Shown here piece by piece: positions 1 through 7,808 of a stretch of DNA of 8,345 bases. Numbering within the stretch: position 1 is the first letter of the stretch; every line of letters starts with the position of its first letter. A model generated the notes under the pieces. It made no database searches, was not told where the DNA came from, and saw only the letters and a program-made list of their open reading frames with translations. Origin of the DNA: a virus (Duplodnaviria > Heunggongvirae > Uroviricota > Caudoviricetes); the IMG/VR virus record IMGVR_UViG_2778261591_000009, one strand, 5' to 3'. The translations under genes were made by a program, and so were the position numbers.

Positions 1-401
1 TCTTGTATTTTTGTTTCGATAGCGCCAGATCTTTTAATGTCTTTTTCAGCACGATAATATGCCTGATCTGGGTCATACTTAAGAACATTAGGAAAATAGA
101 ACTGCTTCGCACCATATGCATCATAAACAGCCATAGAATGGCCTTGCACAGTTACGAATTTAGCAATCTGTCCGTTATATACCGGATATCCAGCAGCGTT
201 AATGATGATTGGTTGCGAAACAGGAACGTGAGAGCCGTCTTCGTTCTCTACATAAACCGGAATCTGGTTTTCAGGATTTACCGGGTCCGTGTCAATTTTA
301 CCGATATAAATTTTGCCATTGGCAACCGCTTTAAAAGAACGCGCCATAGTGAAAAGTTGCGAAGGCATCGATACGATCACATTGGCTGTAATGTCTGTCA
401 T
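1..401 (-). CDS. Tailspike protein, N-terminal head-binding domain (start codon in window; gene continues beyond position 1)
   Basis: Minus-strand ORF starting at ATG 399-401 (GGAG about 9 nt upstream) and running off the window edge with no stop; it is absent from the supplied ORF track, presumably because it is open-ended. My translation is [121 protein letters not shown]... This matches the conserved N-terminal head-binding domain of P22 gp9-type tailspikes as I recall it, and the resemblance stops after KYDPDQ. Confidence 0.88.
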
Positions 402-533
402 TTAATTTGCTCCAGATACAATGAATCGCCGCAGCGTGGCTACGGTTGGTATTTGTTGCATACCGAAACGGTACGATTGTTGATTTGTACAGTAGGTTTT
501 ACGATGCCATTCCACCCATTTGGTGAGGCATTG

Positions 534-791
534 ATGATGTACAGCAAATACGATGAGGCGCAGTTCCACTTGAGGCTTACGCACGAGTTGCACGCCAAGA
601 TTAAACAGCGTGCAAAAATGAATAACAGGTCTATCAATTCCGAAATTGTGGCTACGATGGAAGAATCACTCTCCAAACCATCACCTGTAAGCGGGTATCG
701 TGATGAAGAAGAGAGGCTGGCCTCATTAATCTCGGAACGAGTAAAAGAAGTTGCGGCTGATATCCTTAGAAAAGAAAAAACCCGCGATTAA
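534..791 (+). CDS. mnt: Mnt-like ribbon-helix-helix repressor (Arc/MetJ fold), 85 aa, second orphan copy
   Basis: Same frame as track ORF 3..791 but starting at ATG 534 (GAGG at 525-528). Protein is MMYSKYDEAQFHLRLTHELHAKIKQRAKMNNRSINSEIVATMEESLSKPSPVSGYRDEEERLASLISERVKEVAADILRKEKTRD. It has the RHH signature (FxLRL beta strand, NxRSxNSEIV helix), and the LSKPSPVSGYR...ERLA tail closely resembles the P22 Mnt C-terminal region as I recall it. The upstream part of the track ORF (3..533) looks non-coding in this frame and is occupied on the other strand by the tailspike start. Stop TAA 789-791 lies in the loop of the terminator hairpin. Confidence 0.8.
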   Translation: MMYSKYDEAQFHLRLTHELHAKIKQRAKMNNRSINSEIVATMEESLSKPSPVSGYRDEEERLASLISERVKEVAADILRKEKTRD

Positions 792-805: not shown

Positions 806-1027
806 TTAGTTATCAAAAAGTCCGTACGTTTCTTCTTCTTCAGGTGTAAGGGGAAGAATCTCTACTCTATCTATAGATACCTTTTCAATGTACCCATGAG
901 GTCTACTTAAAATTAAAGCTCTCTCATGCCACAGAACTCCAAGAATGTGATACCTCCCAGCATCGCCTTTTACCCTGGCTCTTCCTTTGATTCTTGGCGG
1001 CATAATGCCATATTTTTTCTTTGCCAT
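806..1027 (-). CDS. Hypothetical small protein (73 aa), translationally coupled to the upstream antirepressor-like gene
   Basis: ATG 1025-1027 overlaps the TAA stop (1027-1029) of the upstream gene as TAATG on the minus strand; it is the last gene before the terminator. Protein MAKKKYGIMPPRIKGRARVKGDAGRYHILGVLWHERALILSRPHGYIEKVSIDRVEILPLTPEEEETYGLFDN has a lysine/arginine-rich N-terminus and an acidic C-terminal tail. I do not recognise the family. Confidence 0.55.
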   Translation of the reverse strand: MAKKKYGIMPPRIKGRARVKGDAGRYHILGVLWHERALILSRPHGYIEKVSIDRVEILPLTPEEEETYGLFDN

Positions 1028-1755
1028 TATGCAACATTACTCCCATGAATCAGGTGTTGTAGTGCTTTAACACCTTCCGCATTGTAGCGGAATACTTCCA
1101 CCTGTTTGCTGGAATGCGCAGATTTATCCAGGAAGAACTTACCGTACTGCTCAGTTTTGAGGTTGTTTGCGTTAGCAATGCGACCAATCTTGTTGGCCGT
1201 TACTCCAAGCTGCTCTGCAACCTCCCCTGCTGAGTAGTAATGCTCTTCTATTGCTGGAAGAGGTATTGCATTAAAACCAACGATCGGGTTGATTATGCTT
1301 GCTGCCGCAGTCTGCTTTGCTTCCGGCGCAAGATTTGGCATCAAATCGAACAGATTGGTAACAGCTTCAACCGTCATTTTCAATGTTCGCGCCTGGCGAT
1401 ACTCAACAAGTCCACTCGACGATTTACCGCTTTTAATGTGCGCTTCTTGCATACTTTCAAGTTGGTCTACAAGTGAGCGGCGAACAGCTTTAGATTCACG
1501 AGCAGCCACTCGAAGGGCTTGCTTAATTGACATAACAACTTTTTCAGAAGTTGTCTTGTTTGATTTTTGAACTACGAAAATTTCGTAGTGCTCACCTTCA
1601 AGTTCATCCTTAATGCGTGCAATAAAGTCGTTATTTCGGACTTCTTTTTCCCCGCACTGTCTACGAGCATGATTGACCATCTCTAACAGGTACTGGCTAT
1701 CAATGGTTTTATCCGTGACAACGGATCCGATGTTTGCTACATTCTTAAAAGTCAT
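1027..1755 (-). CDS. Antirepressor-like phage regulatory protein (242 aa), second gene of tandem ant pair
   Basis: Track ORF 1027..1842 trimmed to the ATG at 1753-1755, which is preceded by AAGGAA (plus-strand ttcctt 1762-1767); the longer N-terminal extension has no ribosome-binding site. It sits immediately downstream of the Bro-N antirepressor in the same operon. The C-terminal segment YSAGEVAEQLGVTANKIGRIANANNLKTEQYGKFF...VEVFRYNAEGVKAL looks like a helix-turn-helix region of the kind found in phage antirepressor C-terminal (KilAC/ORF6C-type) domains. The family assignment is from memory and position only. Confidence 0.6.
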   Translation of the reverse strand: MTFKNVANIGSVVTDKTIDSQYLLEMVNHARRQCGEKEVRNNDFIARIKDELEGEHYEIFVVQKSNKTTSEKVVMSIKQALRVAARESKAVRRSLVDQLESMQEAHIKSGKSSSGLVEYRQARTLKMTVEAVTNLFDLMPNLAPEAKQTAAASIINPIVGFNAIPLPAIEEHYYSAGEVAEQLGVTANKIGRIANANNLKTEQYGKFFLDKSAHSSKQVEVFRYNAEGVKALQHLIHGSNVA

Positions 1756-1823
1756 TAGGCATTCCTTATGTGGTAGTAAGGGTGTGACATAGGCCGCCAG
1801 CAGCACACTGGCGGTTTTCTTTT
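1750..1823 (+). ncRNA. Candidate sar-like antisense RNA (about 74 nt) opposite the start codon and ribosome-binding site of the second antirepressor gene, ending at an intrinsic terminator
   Basis: Plus-strand promoter-like elements lie inside the first codons of the minus-strand gene: GTGACA (1715-1720), a 14-bp gap, then extended -10 TGcTACATT (1735-1743). The predicted start is near 1750. A GC-rich hairpin (ccgccag 1794-1800, loop cagcaca, ctggcgg 1808-1814) is followed directly by UUUUCUUUU (1815-1823). On the minus strand the same hairpin is not followed by a U-tract, so it is oriented for a plus-strand transcript. Ends are approximate. Confidence 0.45.
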
Positions 1824-1842: not shown

Positions 1843-2481
1843 TCAATGAATCCATTCCTCGCCGCGAAGTTTTGCCAGCATTGGCTGAGCGTTCTTTACG
1901 ACAAAATTGTTGGGATCAAGATTCTTCATTTCACGAAGAAGCGATTTCTTGGTTTCTTCTGACATGTAGCGAGTCTCATATGCAATATCGTAAATCTTTC
2001 CTGAAAGCTCAGAACCAATTTGCTTCATTCCAGGGTAGATGTGTTTGCACATTTGTTGACTCTTCTCCATCCACAATTGTAAGTAGCAGAGATTAACCAG
2101 TTCTTCGTCAGTAAACTGTTTTGCAATCGGTGAGCATTCTGCCTGCCGATCCAAAATATCCAGCACCCAGCGGCGGAACTCTTTGGCCTTGGGCGTAGAA
2201 GCAAACATCGCCACCAAGTGAGCGCCTCGGAGTGAGTAAACTCTGACCGATTTGTTACGTAAGCTATTGTTTATTCCGTTGACCTTCATATTGAGGGTCA
2301 ATGACATTGAGTCAGAAAATTCGTCAGCATTACGGGCATAAATTTGGCTGATGGCATCAGTTTTTTTATAGCCGAGAGCCTTAGCTAGTTCGGTGGAGGT
2401 AAACCAGATAGACCCGCCCTCTGTTACAGGGTTAAAAGTGAATCCTTGGAAGTTATAATCTGATTTTGCTACAATATTCAT
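1843..2481 (-). CDS. Bro-N domain antirepressor (Ant-like), 212 aa
   Basis: Track ORF 1843..2565 trimmed to the ATG at 2479-2481, preceded by AAGGAA at 7-nt spacing; upstream in-frame ATGs lack a ribosome-binding site and would overlap arc. The N-terminus MNIVAKSDYNFQGFTFNPVTEGGSIWFTSTELAKALGYKKTDAISQIYARNADEF...VRVYSLRGAHLVAMFASTPKAKEFRRWVLDIL matches the Bro-N pattern (F-F ... W-F ... LGY ... F-RW) that I recall from phage antirepressors. It is the first gene after arc, as ant is in P22 immI. Confidence 0.75.
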   Translation of the reverse strand: MNIVAKSDYNFQGFTFNPVTEGGSIWFTSTELAKALGYKKTDAISQIYARNADEFSDSMSLTLNMKVNGINNSLRNKSVRVYSLRGAHLVAMFASTPKAKEFRRWVLDILDRQAECSPIAKQFTDEELVNLCYLQLWMEKSQQMCKHIYPGMKQIGSELSGKIYDIAYETRYMSEETKKSLLREMKNLDPNNFVVKNAQPMLAKLRGEEWIH

Positions 2482-2556
2482 GTTAGTTTCCTTGAGTACG
2501 GTTACTGACATAGAGGCCCGGTTTGTGTTCGCGCACTTCCGGGCTTCACTATTTTT
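2482..2556 (+). ncRNA. Candidate sar-like antisense RNA (about 75-90 nt) across the arc-ant intercistronic region and the ant ribosome-binding site
   Basis: Two plus-strand promoter candidates lie inside the 5' end of the Bro-N ant gene: TTAAAA (2432-2437) with 16-bp spacer and TATAAT (2454-2459), and an extended -10 TGcTACAAT (2467-2475) with TTGGAA (2446-2451) 18 bp upstream. A hairpin (2513-2521 pairing with 2539-2547, including one G-U) is followed by UAUUUUU (2550-2556) abutting the arc stop codon. The position and size correspond to P22 sar RNA, which is established knowledge. Ends are approximate. Confidence 0.45.
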
Positions 2557-2731
2557 ACTGGGCATTAGCTCTTTCCTCTCTCAGGCTTTTAGCCAGTCGC
2601 TGCACAATCGCAGAGTTGATAGAAATTCCATCCATTTCAGCTACGCGTCTGATCTCCTCCTTCATTCGCGCTGGCAAACGAAGCTGGAAACTCTGACTTT
2701 TACGACCACTGTAAAGAACATCGCTCATCAT
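2555..2731 (-). CDS. arc: Arc-like ribbon-helix-helix repressor (58 aa)
   Basis: Track ORF 2555..2746 with the start moved to ATG 2729-2731, which has GGAG (plus-strand ctcc 2738-2741) 6 nt upstream; the track start at 2746 would abut the operator palindrome with no ribosome-binding site. Protein MMSDVLYSGRKSQSFQLRLPARMKEEIRRVAEMDGISINSAIVQRLAKSLREERANAQ aligns with P22 Arc as recalled (QFNLRWPREV...NGRSVNSEIYQRVMESFKKEGR). It is the first gene of the antirepressor operon and divergent from mnt. Confidence 0.8.
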   Translation of the reverse strand: MMSDVLYSGRKSQSFQLRLPARMKEEIRRVAEMDGISINSAIVQRLAKSLREERANAQ

Positions 2732-2742
2732 CAATATCTCCG

Positions 2743-2798
2743 TCATAATGACATCACCATGATGTCATGACACCATTATGATGCCATTGCTCATAATG
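2743..2798. repeat. Cluster of TCATAATG / CATTATGA repeats in the arc-mnt divergent control region
   Basis: TCATAATG occurs at 2743-2750 and 2791-2798, and its reverse complement CATTATGA at 2774-2781. Each contains a CATAAT -10-like hexamer, two on the plus strand and one on the minus strand, interleaved with the 9-bp palindrome arms. Confidence 0.55.
2748..2768. promoter_or_regulatory. Operator-like perfect inverted repeat ATGACATCA-cca-TGATGTCAT at the predicted start of ant-operon transcripts
   Basis: Two 9-bp arms (2748-2756 and 2760-2768) are exact reverse complements separated by 3 bp. The repeat lies between the candidate Pant -10 and the arc ribosome-binding site, where a repressor would block initiation; in P22 the Mnt operator overlaps the Pant start point. 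The flanks hold further related repeats: TCATAATG at 2743-2750 and 2791-2798, and the inverted copy CATTATGA at 2774-2781. Confidence 0.6.
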
Positions 2799-2851: not shown

Positions 2852-3103
2852 ATGTCAGAAAAAGACGAATCAAATTTCATAGAAAGATTTACGGTTAGAA
2901 TGCCTGACGGCATGCGTAGTGCTATTGCGGAAAGGGCTAAACGAAACGGTCGATCTATGAACTCAGAGATAGTTCAAATTCTTGAGGATGCGTTATCATC
3001 TGACGTCTCATCAGTAGACAAATCATTAGATCTTAAACAAATAAAATCTTTACTTGATAAAATTTCCAACGAGTTACTGGATAGAATCCCAAAAGACACA
3101 TAA
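2852..3103 (+). CDS. mnt: Mnt-like ribbon-helix-helix repressor, 83 aa (positional mnt)
   Basis: Track ORF 2804..3103 trimmed to the ATG at 2852-2854; the 16-aa upstream extension MMLLCFLLLICLANKK is hydrophobic and implausible for a repressor. Protein MSEKDESNFIERFTVRMPDGMRSAIAERAKRNGRSMNSEIVQILEDALSSDVSSVDKSLDLKQIKSLLDKISNELLDRIPKDT. The N-terminal half matches the Mnt/Arc RHH motif (P22 Mnt ...FRMPMEVREKLKFRAEANGRSMNSELLQIVQDALS as recalled), and the C-terminal half is heptad-like, consistent with a coiled-coil oligomerisation tail. It is transcribed divergently from arc, as mnt is in P22. The region is AT-rich. Confidence 0.8.
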   Translation: MSEKDESNFIERFTVRMPDGMRSAIAERAKRNGRSMNSEIVQILEDALSSDVSSVDKSLDLKQIKSLLDKISNELLDRIPKDT

Positions 3104-3153: not shown

Positions 3154-3792
3154 ATGAAAAAAATAGATATATATAGCGATACATCAGCCTATGTCATAGG
3201 CTCATTGGGTTTTTTAATTTTTTTTGTTTGGCAGTACCAGTCACTATCTCCAGGATGGCGATTTTTGGGGATGTCTTTGATATCACTTGGTGCAGGAATA
3301 GCAACGCAGGTGTTGATGTATCTCTTTAATGGATGGCTCTCAAAAAGAGTTGAGAAAAAAAGAGCTACTTCAATATGTAGAAGCCTAGCTATTCCAGAAG
3401 ACTCTACAGATCAGGATGATATTGCAAAATGTTGGCGGTATATGATTGCAAGATACTCAAATGAGTTACTGGCAAACAGACTGTCCGACTTAATCGGGAT
3501 CGTAGTTACCTCTGTTGGAACAATCATCAGTATAGGGATATCAATTTGGTATGTCGGGATGATTGTCTATTTTGTTTGGAATAGAGACTTCAATGAACCT
3601 TCCCTTCTTTTTATACCTTTATTTTTCAGGGTATTAGCATTCATATGTGAGTTATTGCTCTCTTTTTTCTGCAATGTTTTGTTCAACAGATACCCAGGTG
3701 AAGCAAGAAAGTTTAATAAAAACTATGATGAGTTAAGGAGAACAGATCCTTTTCTATCAAGCAAAGAGTTCCGCGATTCCATTCGCAATTAA
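3154..3792 (+). CDS. Polytopic inner-membrane protein (212 aa) at the sieA position; candidate superinfection-exclusion protein
   Basis: Track ORF 3121..3792 trimmed to ATG 3154-3156, with AAGGAG at 3138-3143. The protein has at least four hydrophobic helices (AYVIGSLGFLIFFVWQY, FLGMSLISLGAGIATQVLMYLF, LIGIVVTSVGTIISIGISIWYVGMIVYFVW, LLFIPLFFRVLAFICELLLSFFCNVLF). The gene is very AT-rich (about one-third GC in sampled stretches against about 45-50% in the late genes). It lies between the ejection gene gp16 and mnt on the mnt strand, which is the slot P22 uses for sieA. The functional call is positional; I cannot confirm sequence similarity to SieA from memory. Confidence 0.7.
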   Translation: MKKIDIYSDTSAYVIGSLGFLIFFVWQYQSLSPGWRFLGMSLISLGAGIATQVLMYLFNGWLSKRVEKKRATSICRSLAIPEDSTDQDDIAKCWRYMIARYSNELLANRLSDLIGIVVTSVGTIISIGISIWYVGMIVYFVWNRDFNEPSLLFIPLFFRVLAFICELLLSFFCNVLFNRYPGEARKFNKNYDELRRTDPFLSSKEFRDSIRN

Positions 3793-3813
3793 CAACATCC
3801 ATGACATCAACCC

Positions 3814-5655
3814 TTAGCGATCAGTTGCATCATTGGCAAGTATTGGTCTGATGGCATTTGCGGCGTTATTCAGCGCTCTTTCATAGGCTGGTGTTCCTGC
3901 TTTGGTGTTTGCCAAACGTAAGAGAGCATTCCTTGCTGCTTTAGACTCATACAAACGCATCATTGCACCAAAGCCAGCCTCAAGCCCCATTGATACGCCA
4001 AGAGTCGCAGTTGCGCCAATCGTCCTTATCCGGTTGGCTTGCGATTGCCCCGTCTGAGTTACTACATTTGCGGTGTCTGACCTTGCTGTTTGCTGTAGAA
4101 CTTCATGAAGAGAATCAAGCTCTTTCATGTGCTTTCCAGAAAAAATAGTGTTGTAAATTTCACCACCTGACTGAGATTTCAGCTTATTAACTTCAGTGAT
4201 GAACTTGGCTGGAGAATCACCGGCCTTTTCCGCTATTTTGCTGACGTAAGCTGCACGCATAGCATCTTTCCCTTTATCATCCAATGCGCTCCAGATTCGT
4301 TTCACGTCAGATGGTTTTCTGCTTAATACAACGGTATTTATAAGTTCAGGACTGGCTTCACTGCTTGCCTTGTTGAGCTTGTTAGCAATGTTTTTATTAA
4401 GCACCTTATTATAAACGTTTGCATAATCTGAATTTGCTTTAAGGTATTTTGCTGCGTCTGATGCACCGAGGTTTTTAGCAACTGCGTTACGAAGGTCTTT
4501 TGACATTGCATTCTCTACCATATTGGTAGCTGCTTTTGCCTGGTTGGGGAAGACCATAGAATCTCCCTGAACATTAGATCTAAATGCTGTTCTGTGCTGA
4601 CGCAAGAGATCAAACGTAACATCCAAATCAGTTGCAGGGTTTGCTAATTCTTCACGTAGGTTACGCAAGGATGTAAGCAGGCTTTGATTGGCTGAAGTCC
4701 CAAGCCGTTCCTGTCTTGCGATCGCTGTATTCAGAGCATTCATGGTATTTGTGGTATCAACTGCGGCATTACCCATTTTATTGGTGACGTCATTGATAAC
4801 AGCGCCAGCAGCATCCTTCCGCCCCCTTAACGTGGTGGTCAGAGATTTCACCACATCATCAGGGTTGTACTCACCAAAACGGTCAAAATAATTGCTTACC
4901 AGCTTACTACGCGTTGCATATTGCTCCGCTCGCTTTGAGCCTGTCCCGAGCAAAGCCCCCTCGGCATCCTGAGTAAGGCCGCGAGTGAAAGCATTTTTCG
5001 GCGGGATAACATCAGATGTCATTGGTGTCACGCCCATCGATTCTGAAGTGGCAATTTTCTTCGCCACTTCTGGCGCAATATCACCTTTTATAGCCGTTAT
5101 TCCACGCCCTATTCCCTTTGCTGCTGCGGAAAGAACACCCTGAGCGGCAAGGTTAACTCCGGCATTTTTAGCTGCATTTTGTGCGAAATCGCCTTTCTGA
5201 TTTGCGGCCTCTGCCAGTGATCCAATAGCCATGCTTCCTGCCGTTCCAATTCCTGGAACTAAATACCCGCCAATTGTTTCTCCAGCTTGAGCGTAGGGGT
5301 CTGTCGGTCTGTCTACTGGACGATAAACATCATCCAAAACTTTTGGCCCACCAAGCCCCTGACTGATTGCATTAATCAGACTTGCGCCACCCTGCAATAC
5401 GTCAAATGGTATGTTTACCAGACCACGACCAGCCTGTTCTGCAATTTGCCCTGCACTTTGACCACCAGTGAGCCAATCGCCAGCTTGTTGCATCAATGAT
5501 GGTTCTTCCCGTGTTGGTGCATTATTGGCCTGATTAACTGTTTGTTGCTGAACAGCCTGACCAGCAAAATACTCATCAATGGCGGTGCCAATATCTTCGG
5601 TGCTCGTACCATCAGGAAAGGTAAATGTCTTACCGTTTGCAGTTACTTTCATCAT
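3814..5655 (-). CDS. Ejection (DNA-transfer) protein, P22 gp16-like, about 613 aa
   Basis: Long minus-strand ORF with late-gene composition. Its tandem ATGs at 5653-5655 and 5650-5652 overlap the TGA stop of the upstream gene (ATGA-type coupling). It is third in a run of 224, 490 and 613 aa that matches the size and order of P22 gp7 (229), gp20 (471) and gp16 (609) immediately upstream of sieA/mnt. The sequence is Gly/Ala/Gln-rich with no obvious enzymatic motif. The assignment rests on synteny and size. Confidence 0.8.
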
Positions 5656-7124
5656 TCCACCGTAAATTGAATGCCTGATTTTGAGGTATATGATCCGGAT
5701 TGACTCTGCTGCTGTTGGGTATTTGTCGGTTGTTGGCTATTGCTCTGTTGTTGACTATTTGCAGCACTTGAAACCACCAAAGCATCATAAACGCGACCAG
5801 ACTGACCACGTAATGAGTTATATTGGCCCTGCATTTTTCGCATTTTTGTTTCAGTAGCAGCCTTGGAATCACCGGGCTGAGGCAGGTACATTTTGGAATA
5901 CTCCTGCATCTCTGGCAGAGTAATTGCTGCACCTGTTTCTGGGCGCAAAATTGCATACAAGGCGTCTCTCGCATTTACCATATATTGCTGCTCCGCTGGT
6001 GATAGGCTTAAATTTGCAATAGTCCCATCACCAAGAGAGCGATTTATTAATGCAACTCGCTTAGGGTCAATGCTTTTACTAAGCTGATTCATTGAGTCCA
6101 TTGAATCTTTTAATCGCAAAGCAAATCCCGCCGCCTTCTTGGAACCCTCATTAGCCTTATCTATGATGCTTTGCGCTTGTGGCAAGCTAATTGGTTTAAT
6201 GCCATCACCAGATATAGGTTGGTTTAGTTTTCCGGCTTCCTCGCTGCCATCGGTGTAATACTTAGTTACCGAGCCATCAGGATTGGTTTCAACCTTAAGT
6301 AATTTCTTAGCATTGGGATTAATTCCCGCCGCTGCCGCAAATGCCGCTGCACCATCTGGATCTACCTTTAACATTTGCGCGTACTGATTGTAATTCTGCA
6401 TTGCGGCTGTTGGTGCATATGCTGACGTTAACGCATTTGCTCGGCTAATATCCTGCCCTCTCGCCTGAAGTGCTTCACCAGCCTGATTGCTGCGGATTGT
6501 CTCTGCCAGTCTGCCTCGGTCAATCTCACGACCCGCCATCTTGTCCTGAACATTGAAGTAATCAATCGGACCAAGCGCGGCCATTCCAAGATGATCAACA
6601 AACTCACCAAATCCTGAAGGGTTCTGCTGATACATCTGAGCAACGTTGTTAGGGTCAACACCGACGCGAGTCAGTTCCTTGGCGTTGTTTTGCAGCCATG
6701 ATTGCATTGCTTCTGGAGACGAGGCTGCAAGGCGTGCGCCAGCCGCTAAGGTGCCGATAGAATTGCGCTGGTCTTCGTCTGCCCACTTCATACCAGACTG
6801 AATCTTCTCTAATTGACCAGGATATTTGGTCATCAGATCTCGCACCTGCTGTCGATCACCTGACTGGATGGCTGCCGCATATTCTTTTTGGAATGCAGCA
6901 TCCACTTCCTGTTGCTTTGCGGCTTGATATGTTTGAGCGACACTACCAAGCCCCTGCAACGCCTGAAGGCCGATGTTATTGCGACCTGAGCGCTCCATTT
7001 CGTTGTTCTGGCGAATATAGGCCAACGCCTCACTTACATCACTTGCCTTTGGCGCATTTGAGTTTTGCCCACCGATACCAGCAAGAAAGCCGCCTGAGTT
7101 GATTCCTTGTTGCCAAGTAGCCAT
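5652..7124 (-). CDS. Ejection (DNA-transfer) protein, P22 gp20-like, 490 aa
   Basis: Minus-strand ORF with ATG 7122-7124 and GGTGG 5-6 nt upstream; the stop at 5652-5654 overlaps the next start. It is the middle member of the 7-20-16 block by order and size. The C-terminus is Gln/Ser-rich ([21 protein letters not shown]). Confidence 0.8.
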
Positions 7125-7133
7125 ATTCCCACC

Positions 7134-7808
7134 TTAAAACAATGATCCAAGACCACCGATAATGCCGCCACCAATAGCGCCAACAGCCGTACCTATTCCT
7201 GGCACCACAGAGCCAATCATCGCCCCTGATGCCGCACCGCTCATGGCACCTCCCAAGGCTGATTGCAGTCCTGATGGTCGGTTAGCATTCGCCGCAGATG
7301 CTGCCGCCTGCTGTTGATACAGTTGGCTGACGTTGTTAGCGTAGTTCTGTCCGGCATTTGCCTGACCTGTAAGAGCACCAAGGCCGATATTTGCCAGATT
7401 GTTGTAGTTGTTCATCTGACCTGACAGCCAGTTTTGACCGAGTGTAGGTGCGATTGCTGCTAACTGGTTTCCTGTTGCTGTAGAGCCTAATCCACCCGTT
7501 GCCTCTGCTGCTGCCAGACTCTGGTAACGCGCCTGACCTGCAAGGTCTTTATACTGCTGAGAGTTGTAATACTGGTTAAGCGCCTGACCTTGCCCCTGAA
7601 GAGAGGAAAGATTCTGCAACTCTGATACGTACTGTTGAGCGAGTGGCGTGAACGGTGCGAGGTTTTGCATGTTCGTTTGCCACATTTCACGCTGCAATTC
7701 GATACCCTTTTCAGTTGCGCGTGCCTGGGCTTTTGAACCGCCATCACTGCCGCCTTTGCAGTAAACAGCTTTGCTGAGGTGCTTATTGGCAATCTGGAAA
7801 ATTAACAT
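7134..7808 (-). CDS. Ejection (DNA-transfer) protein, P22 gp7-like, 224 aa
   Basis: Minus-strand ORF with ATG 7806-7808 and GAGGAG 7 nt upstream. It has a glycine-rich hydrophobic C-terminus (GAMSGAASGAMIGSVVPGIGTAVGAIGGGIIGGLGSLF). It is the first of the three ejection genes by order and size. Confidence 0.8.
   Translation of the reverse strand: MLIFQIANKHLSKAVYCKGGSDGGSKAQARATEKGIELQREMWQTNMQNLAPFTPLAQQYVSELQNLSSLQGQGQALNQYYNSQQYKDLAGQARYQSLAAAEATGGLGSTATGNQLAAIAPTLGQNWLSGQMNNYNNLANIGLGALTGQANAGQNYANNVSQLYQQQAAASAANANRPSGLQSALGGAMSGAASGAMIGSVVPGIGTAVGAIGGGIIGGLGSLF

Follow-up and report, generated by a model that had tools for sequence, protein, structure and literature searches.

How is a second antirepressor gene kept under control in phages that carry two of them? 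Phage P22's immI region is a textbook example of layered control, in which Mnt, Arc and the antisense RNA sar all act on one antirepressor; the established action of sar was reportedly described by Liao et al. and Wu et al. in 1987. Many relatives of P22 carry two antirepressor-type genes in tandem. Here, we have analyzed a stretch of 8,345 nucleotides (IMG/VR virus record IMGVR_UViG_2778261591_000009, Caudoviricetes; hereafter the window), which comes from a P22-like (Lederbergvirus) prophage of Escherichia coli and represents its immI or 'ant moron' region, the minus strand carrying the late operon. In the window, an antirepressor gene (ant1) is followed by an antirepressor-like gene (gene 2), and opposite the start of each lies a putative antisense unit on the plus strand, named unit 1 at ant1 and unit 2 at gene 2 (Table 1). 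Our data suggest that the second gene has a dedicated antisense RNA: positions 1715-1823 of the plus strand are likely to be a small gene for a cis-encoded RNA of ~74 nt, which would act as a sar-like brake on gene 2.

Unit 2 is composed of a predicted promoter with a spacing of 17 bp between its -35 and -10 elements and a predicted terminator in the ant1-gene 2 spacer. The +1 position was set 7 nt past the -10 element, by analogy with the annotated start of P22 sar, and the RNA predicted from it covers both the Shine-Dalgarno (SD) sequence and the AUG of gene 2 with full complementarity. The terminator hairpin contains 10 pairs (6 G-C) including a core 7-bp stem (1794-1800/1808-1814), a loop of 7 nt and the tail TCTTTTG; the T run after it is found on the plus strand only, the minus strand being without one. 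Thus, a GC-rich stem, a short loop, a direct T run and covariation (see below) all mark it as an intrinsic terminator. An earlier sequence-only reading of this DNA had described the promoter, its spacing, the plus-strand-only terminator and their positions, and all of these statements hold. It should be noted that a scan of the window without comparison was at chance level, listing 7 promoter-like and 4 terminator-like sites where 6.2 and 2.8, respectively, would be expected; the case therefore rests on comparative data. No LexA box or sense promoter was seen in the ant1-gene 2 spacer, and the only reading frame for a peptide in the RNA was ATG-TGG-TAG. Two other candidates were discarded: a palindrome in the promoter spacer (CGGATCCG) was not conserved among the relatives, and TGACAT, considered as a shared operator half-site, was spread across coding DNA (13 copies, 6 expected).

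One line of evidence came from synonymous sites. Relatives of gene 2 were collected by protein similarity and not by RNA features, which gave 26 distinct N-terminal versions reaching down to 58-65% protein identity (Proteus, Dryocola and Intestinirhabdus), and the unit was present in every version with an intact N-terminus, including these three. Among codons 2-22, third positions were invariant (26/26) only at codons 2, 5, 6, 7, 12 and 13; on the antisense strand these are A1750, A4 and T1 of the hexamer, the T of TG, and the A and G of GTGACA. Third positions varied in the promoter spacer (codons 8-11) and in codons 14-22. The -35 element GTGACA was invariant in all 26 versions: the Val codon was always GTC, and the codon before it (codon 12) always ended in T though the residue was V, I or S. 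TG and T1, A2, A4 and T6 of the hexamer were likewise invariant (26/26), the variation being confined to positions 3 and 5 (TACATT, TAAATT, TAAAGT and TACAGT), and A1750, which complements the third position of codon 2, was kept in all 26 across T, L and A codons. It had been pointed out beforehand that the motif might be explained solely by conserved N-terminal codons. Our comparison argues against this, the promoter bases having stayed while the residues changed (N/T, V/L, A/S and V/I/S at codons 5, 6, 7 and 12, respectively). The chance of five promoter third positions all falling among the 6 invariant of 21 would be 16/54264 (~3e-4), a value that is indicative only because the sequences are related and the number of events is overstated. 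The same synonymous-site pattern could be observed in the ORF6N family. As judged from these comparisons, the promoter is under nucleotide-level selection, and unit 2 provides a clean case of a promoter that can be detected from synonymous-site conservation alone.

The geometry of the unit was also fixed. We collected 127 distinct cassettes by a hairpin-pattern scan of viral contigs and from protein-based sets, 9 hairpin hits that were unrelated chance terminators having been removed by eye. In all 127, a sequence matching a promoter strongly was located 38-53 nt upstream of the hairpin; it was [G/T/A][T/C]GACA-17-TAnnnT with TG in 123 cassettes and TTGACT-16-GATAAT in the other 4; the predicted RNA lengths ranged from 63 to 82 nt (median 74). 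When 130-nt segments were drawn at random from these loci, just 1.1% had a promoter score as high as that of the cassettes. As a control for circularity, the ORF6N family (SPN3UB type) was collected by protein, and both promoter and terminator were found in 48 of its 58 distinct contexts. Among the remaining 10, two (L283 and L289) had the promoter with a terminator not detected by the finder, seven were 50%-identity relatives with another N-terminus, and one was a partial match.

The terminator stem was analyzed for covariation across relatives, as the sequence-only reading had proposed. In 30 distinct variants all cells were paired (270/270), 16 of them with a double change, although 5 of the 30 were obtained with a finder that accepts only paired stems and introduce a mild bias. 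Compensatory changes occurred at three pairs (C-G to G-C, G-U or U-G; C-G to U-A or U-G; G-C to A-U), the covariation score was reached by none of 500 shuffles, and sliding of the 3' partner abolished the pairing. The loop sequence varied freely among the copies, whereas the stem GCCGCCAG/CTGGCGG (for example, window 1793-1814) was conserved in sequence in most of them, though leader and flanking genes varied as well. For the predicted RNA of unit 2, folding gave a pair of hairpins (-25.1 kcal/mol, z = -2.5), of which the 5' one contains the anti-SD; two hairpins were also obtained for the RNA of unit 1 (-31 kcal/mol, z = -5.6) and for P22 sar (-29.5 kcal/mol, z = -5.3). Exactly two hairpins, including a 5' stem-loop, were predicted in 66 of 66 representative RNAs of the family despite several unrelated leader types, across which the 5' hairpin is not alignable.

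Examination of the genes that accompany the cassette revealed a wide distribution among antirepressors. Behind it we found gene 2 of the window type as well as ORF6N, Bro-N, Rha, Rha+ANT and KilA-N+ANT genes, that is, at least five domain families, and the sequence past the T run was of at least eight unrelated kinds. Some genes carried the first 8-12 codons of another family; thus, the first codons are part of the cassette, which moves as a whole. Its mosaic borders lay immediately past the T run and, on the other side, at 20-60 nt into the gene. The sense gene preceding the T run was nearly always an antirepressor (usually Bro-N/P22_AR_C, sometimes P22_AR_N), and in all contexts checked it was an antirepressor gene or a remnant of one. 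One cassette (L144) had appeared to replace sar directly after arc, an assignment that we rejected: a sar-type terminator and a 2-codon ant1 stub were still present between them, so that in this sample the cassette was always a second unit and never a replacement of sar. Copies were seen in more than 100 viral contigs and in dozens of 5,426 complete E. coli genomes. Hypervariability of the leader was considered and dropped, since its mean pairwise identity (0.65, compared with 0.75 in the coding part) indicates a divergence only mildly beyond that of the coding part. With respect to the window itself, phage JEP4 covered 98% of the length of positions 780-2600 at 93.7% identity, a 221-nt piece around unit 2 was 100% identical in a prophage of E. 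coli O111:H- 110512, E. coli 55989 (NC_011748, ~2,672,095-2,672,316) was a further carrier of the region, and the layout with both units was also found in JEP4, SPN3UB and KP12 and is thus not specific to the window.

What is the relationship between the two units? Exactly two copies of the 9-mer TTTGCTACA are present in the window, both on the plus strand, at 1733-1741 and 2465-2473, as had been reported (0.12 copies expected; two copies reached in 2 of 200 shuffles), and the repeat around it extends to 14 nt at 86% identity. Its two places are equivalent to within two codons, the -10 element lying in codons 3-5 of ant1 in unit 1 and in codons 5-7 of gene 2 in unit 2. The sequence-only reading had proposed from this that the promoter motif of a second sar-like unit was duplicated from the arc-ant unit. 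The sar-like unit opposite the second antirepressor-like gene is supported by synonymous-site promoter conservation, fixed geometry, terminator covariation, the two-hairpin fold and complementarity to SD and AUG; the duplication is not. In alignment with P22 sar, unit 1 was clearly homologous (z = 8.9, score reached by 0 of 2000 shuffles) and unit 2 was not (z = 1.0, 327 of 2000 shuffles). Similarity between the two units was marginal (z = 3.5, 4 of 2000 shuffles) and limited to functional motifs, namely the core of TTTGCTACA, the anti-SD, and the sequence TGACATAG that makes up the 3' half of the 5' stem, and we therefore rejected unit 2 as a local duplicate. TTTGCTACA is the extended -10 core (TGcTA) common to both promoter families and not a local copy. 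On these comparisons, unit 1 is a true sar homologue, whereas unit 2 represents a distinct cassette, which is widespread and sar-like in design and accompanies many antirepressor-type genes. The duplex of the unit 2 RNA with its cognate gene 2 start region was predicted at -151 kcal/mol, compared with -42 kcal/mol for the ant1 start region; the energies for pairing of each RNA with the start of the other gene (-42 and -48 kcal/mol; shuffles ~-33 +/- 5) were too weak to argue for cross-talk between the units. When searched against Rfam, neither the whole window nor 1650-2650 had a meaningful match, and neither unit matched RF00262 (E <= 10 over 1650-2650, E <= 1 over the whole window; gathering threshold 43 bits), for which P22 scored 97.8 bits as a positive control.

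Unit 2 is nevertheless close in design to P22 sar, which is annotated in the P22 record one gene upstream. Both have an extended -10 antisense promoter (predicted in unit 2) in the first antirepressor codons, an intrinsic terminator in the spacer before the upstream gene, and an RNA of ~70 nt with two hairpins that covers the ribosome-binding site (again predicted in unit 2), and both are part of the same immI or 'ant moron' region, with the ejection genes on one side and the tailspike gene on the other. On the other hand, unit 2 is located between two antirepressor genes and sar between arc and ant; the unit 2 RNA would cover not only the ribosome-binding site but also the start codon, its terminator stem is distinct and highly conserved, and it shares the operon with a true sar homologue. 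In the immI regions of P1 and P7, the small RNA c4 blocks an antirepressor operon at its ribosome-binding region, as the unit 2 RNA would do. c4 is cut from a same-strand transcript upstream of its targets, with which it pairs through short loop sequences. Unit 2 differs in lying on the strand opposite its target, with its own predicted promoter and terminator and with full complementarity, and membership in the c4 type (same strand, processed) was rejected on these grounds.

The 'ant moron' is a variable region that carries mnt, arc, sar and ant and is flanked by the homologues of gene 16 and gene 9, and ten moron types were found in sixteen genomes (Villafane et al., 2008; PMC2629481). In that work on the epsilon34 genome, only Sar and the Q antisense RNA were mentioned, and an antisense unit for a second antirepressor is absent from it (PMC2629481). 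P22 sar acts on the translation of ant (PMC12197685), and a 2026 survey of P22 small RNAs and a 2025 review give sar, with c4 and 24B_1 elsewhere, as the RNAs that act on antirepressors. The same three were the only ones that we found in the literature searched for such RNAs, and no description of the second antisense unit was found in it, most subscription journals being outside the reach of the search.

On the basis of these results, we infer that an RNA is produced from unit 2, with ends close to those predicted, and that it represses translation. A sigma-70 extended -10 promoter inside codons 5-14 of gene 2 would fire against the gene, probably from A1750, and the transcript would be ended by the intrinsic terminator between ant1 and gene 2, whose hairpin spans 1791-1817 and whose T run extends to 1823. 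Such an RNA would be perfectly complementary to the first two codons, the SD sequence and the leader of gene 2. If it works as P22 sar does, its pairing with the gene 2 mRNA would block ribosome binding and translation initiation, and the duplex may also trigger cleavage. The target mRNA could possibly come from Pant or from read-through of the late operon toward the tailspike gene. The stop of gene 2 and the start of the next gene, orf73, overlap as TAATG (window 1024-1029), and orf73 is probably translationally coupled to gene 2; this overlap suggests that the two genes could be co-regulated, and both would be held down independently of ant1, on which the sar homologue of unit 1 would act. 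As an observation apart, orf73 was also present alongside gene 2 in JEP4, E. coli A28 and EC16. Late transcription that reaches the tailspike gene crosses both antirepressor genes, and an antisense RNA acts only on a matching start region; one RNA per gene would thus be sensible and would explain the silencing of both.

It could be argued that no small RNA is involved, the promoter-like bases being kept by coding or translation-start constraint and the hairpin being a stabilizer or processing site of the sense polycistronic mRNA. The motif does lie inside conserved N-terminal codons (NVAN, VVTDK), synonymous constraint is frequent at the 5' ends of genes, and the single-window scan was not significant. 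However, the invariant third positions coincide exactly with -35, TG/-10 and +1 while residues change and spacer codons drift, the same motif at the same distance from the hairpin was found in genes with unrelated N-termini, and the T run follows the hairpin on the antisense strand only, which makes this explanation highly improbable. Considering the conserved stem between a variable loop and two variable flanks, the mosaic borders just past the T run and at 20-60 nt into the gene, and Klebsiella phage phiKp_30, which keeps the cassette with a mere stub of ant1, the block might also be a recombination joint or a protein-binding site for the swapping of antirepressors, with incidental promoter and terminator activity. 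A joint would need neither -35 and -10 elements 17 bp apart with a TG extension, nor a one-strand T run and compensatory stem changes, nor an anti-SD held in the 5' hairpin. We therefore consider it very unlikely as a replacement for the antisense role; the two are compatible, and a joint would be an addition more than an alternative.

There is also little probability that the RNA works mainly in trans as a c4-like determinant of immunity specificity, or by transcriptional interference with the ant operon. Several facts speak for such a role: the leader comes in at least six unrelated versions between conserved promoter and terminator, the promoter is on its face independent of a phage activator, and in the c4 precedent RNA control of an antirepressor sets heteroimmunity. 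However, leader identity was not far below that of the coding part, and the terminator would restrict interference to ~74 nt. Returning to a cis-acting antisense brake, we note that, besides the relatedness of the sequences behind the third-position figure, several points weigh against it. The promoter and terminator are sequence predictions, and most hairpin variants (L100-L219) were gathered with a pattern for the hairpin itself. In families A and B, the NVA and xxT-GTC codons are common by descent and do not count as independent replicates. The -10 hexamer TACATT matches the consensus at four of six positions, so that activity would hinge on the TG extension and the -35 element; the P22 promoter Psar, which is intrinsically weak and context-dependent and is reportedly stimulated by convergent sense transcription, may offer a parallel, and the unit 2 promoter could be conditional likewise. 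Rfam contains no family matching unit 2. Finally, sequence conservation of the stem exceeds the needs of a terminator, which hints at an added or different role.

The sequence family of unit 2 is missing from Rfam, and a TG-extended -10 in codons 5-7 with GTGACA or TCGACA 17 bp upstream, together with GCCGCCAG-loop-CTGGCGG and then a T run, can serve as an annotation signature of the cassette. A bolder and rather unlikely proposal is a mobile 'antisense lock' cassette, which would supply an RNA brake for each extra antirepressor and, in trans, a second layer of immunity specificity. Its parts would be a conserved promoter in the first codons, a replaceable leader for target specificity and a conserved terminator. 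Were this true, the RNA made by a prophage would act in trans on phages with the same leader, and an RNA-based layer would govern antirepressor cross-talk between co-resident prophages.

Table 1 Positions of unit 2, unit 1 and the genes of the window
Feature	Position	Strand	Remarks
Antisense promoter -35 (predicted), GTGACA	1715-1720	+	Inside gene 2 codons 12-14; consensus scan
Extended -10 (predicted), TGcTACATT	1735-1743	+	Inside gene 2 codons 5-7; consensus scan
Predicted antisense RNA, ~74 nt	1750-1823	+	+1 inferred at A1750; 3' end in T run
5' stem-loop of the RNA (predicted)	1751-1788	+	With anti-SD UUCCUU (1762-1767); folding
Predicted intrinsic terminator	1791-1823	+	Hairpin 1791-1817, then T run TTTTCTTTT (1815-1823)
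Putative target, gene 2 translation initiation region	1753-1767	-	SD AAGGAA 1762-1767, ATG 1753-1755
Unit 1, sar homologue	2446-2556	+	Promoter TTGGAA-18-TACAAT with TG (2446-2475); predicted RNA 2482-2556
Ejection-protein genes	7134-7808, 5652-7124, 3814-5655	-	
sieA-like gene	3154-3792	+	
mnt-like gene	2852-3103	+	
arc	2555-2746	-	Pfam Arc, E = 1e-11
ant1, antirepressor with Bro-N + P22_AR_C	1843-2481	-	Pfam matches
Gene 2, antirepressor-like, 242 aa	1027-1755	-	PHROG phrog_1726 'anti-repressor', E = 6e-100
orf73, 73 aa	806-1027	-	Matches phrog_4977, a function-unknown family
Second Arc/Mnt-like gene	537-791	+	
Tailspike gene, N-terminus	1-402	-	

The protein of gene 2 had no match in a Pfam search; its C-terminal ~170 aa showed 51% identity to the C-terminus of a Bro-N protein behind the same cassette type. 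With regard to ant1, ORF finders report a 240-aa frame (1843-2565, minus strand) that we rejected as an artefactual 5' extension through unit 1 (MPSKNSEARKCANTN...). The true start of ant1 is the ATG at 2481, with an SD at 2488-2493; the extended frame has been adopted by some annotators for SPN3UB and KP12.

Remnants of these genes could be seen in other phages. In phiKp_30 (3700-3830), unit 2 and gene 2 were kept and ant1 was lost, ~25 nt of its 3' end being left beside the T run. The spacer between ant and gene 9 of P22 (~6075-6165, minus strand) contains a fragment of ~85 nt that is 78% identical to the interior of gene 2 (window 1531-1615) and is flanked by the direct repeat GGCTACGGTGAATTTT; an ancestor of P22 probably carried a second antirepressor gene of the gene 2 type, which was later lost. 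In three loci (L080, L081 and L084, ~2900-3010), the gene 2 relative differs in its N-terminus and lacks the cassette; present instead were an antisense TGcAATATT and another small hairpin with a T-rich tail, which may represent a third, unrelated antisense unit.

Several minor features were found at the two ends of the region. The second Arc/Mnt-like gene and the ant operon are convergent, the gene running toward the operon's end, and a hairpin at 778-799 is flanked on either side by T-rich runs and may be a bidirectional terminator of transcription. In the spacer between arc and the mnt-like gene (2746-2815) there are three imperfect 25-nt repeats with overlapping palindromes, which are presumably the Arc and Mnt operators of the prophage and differ from those of P22. 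Upstream of the second Arc/Mnt-like gene, the 13-nt sequence TTACGATGCCATT (499-511) resembles part of these Pant/Pmnt operator repeats (2776-2788).

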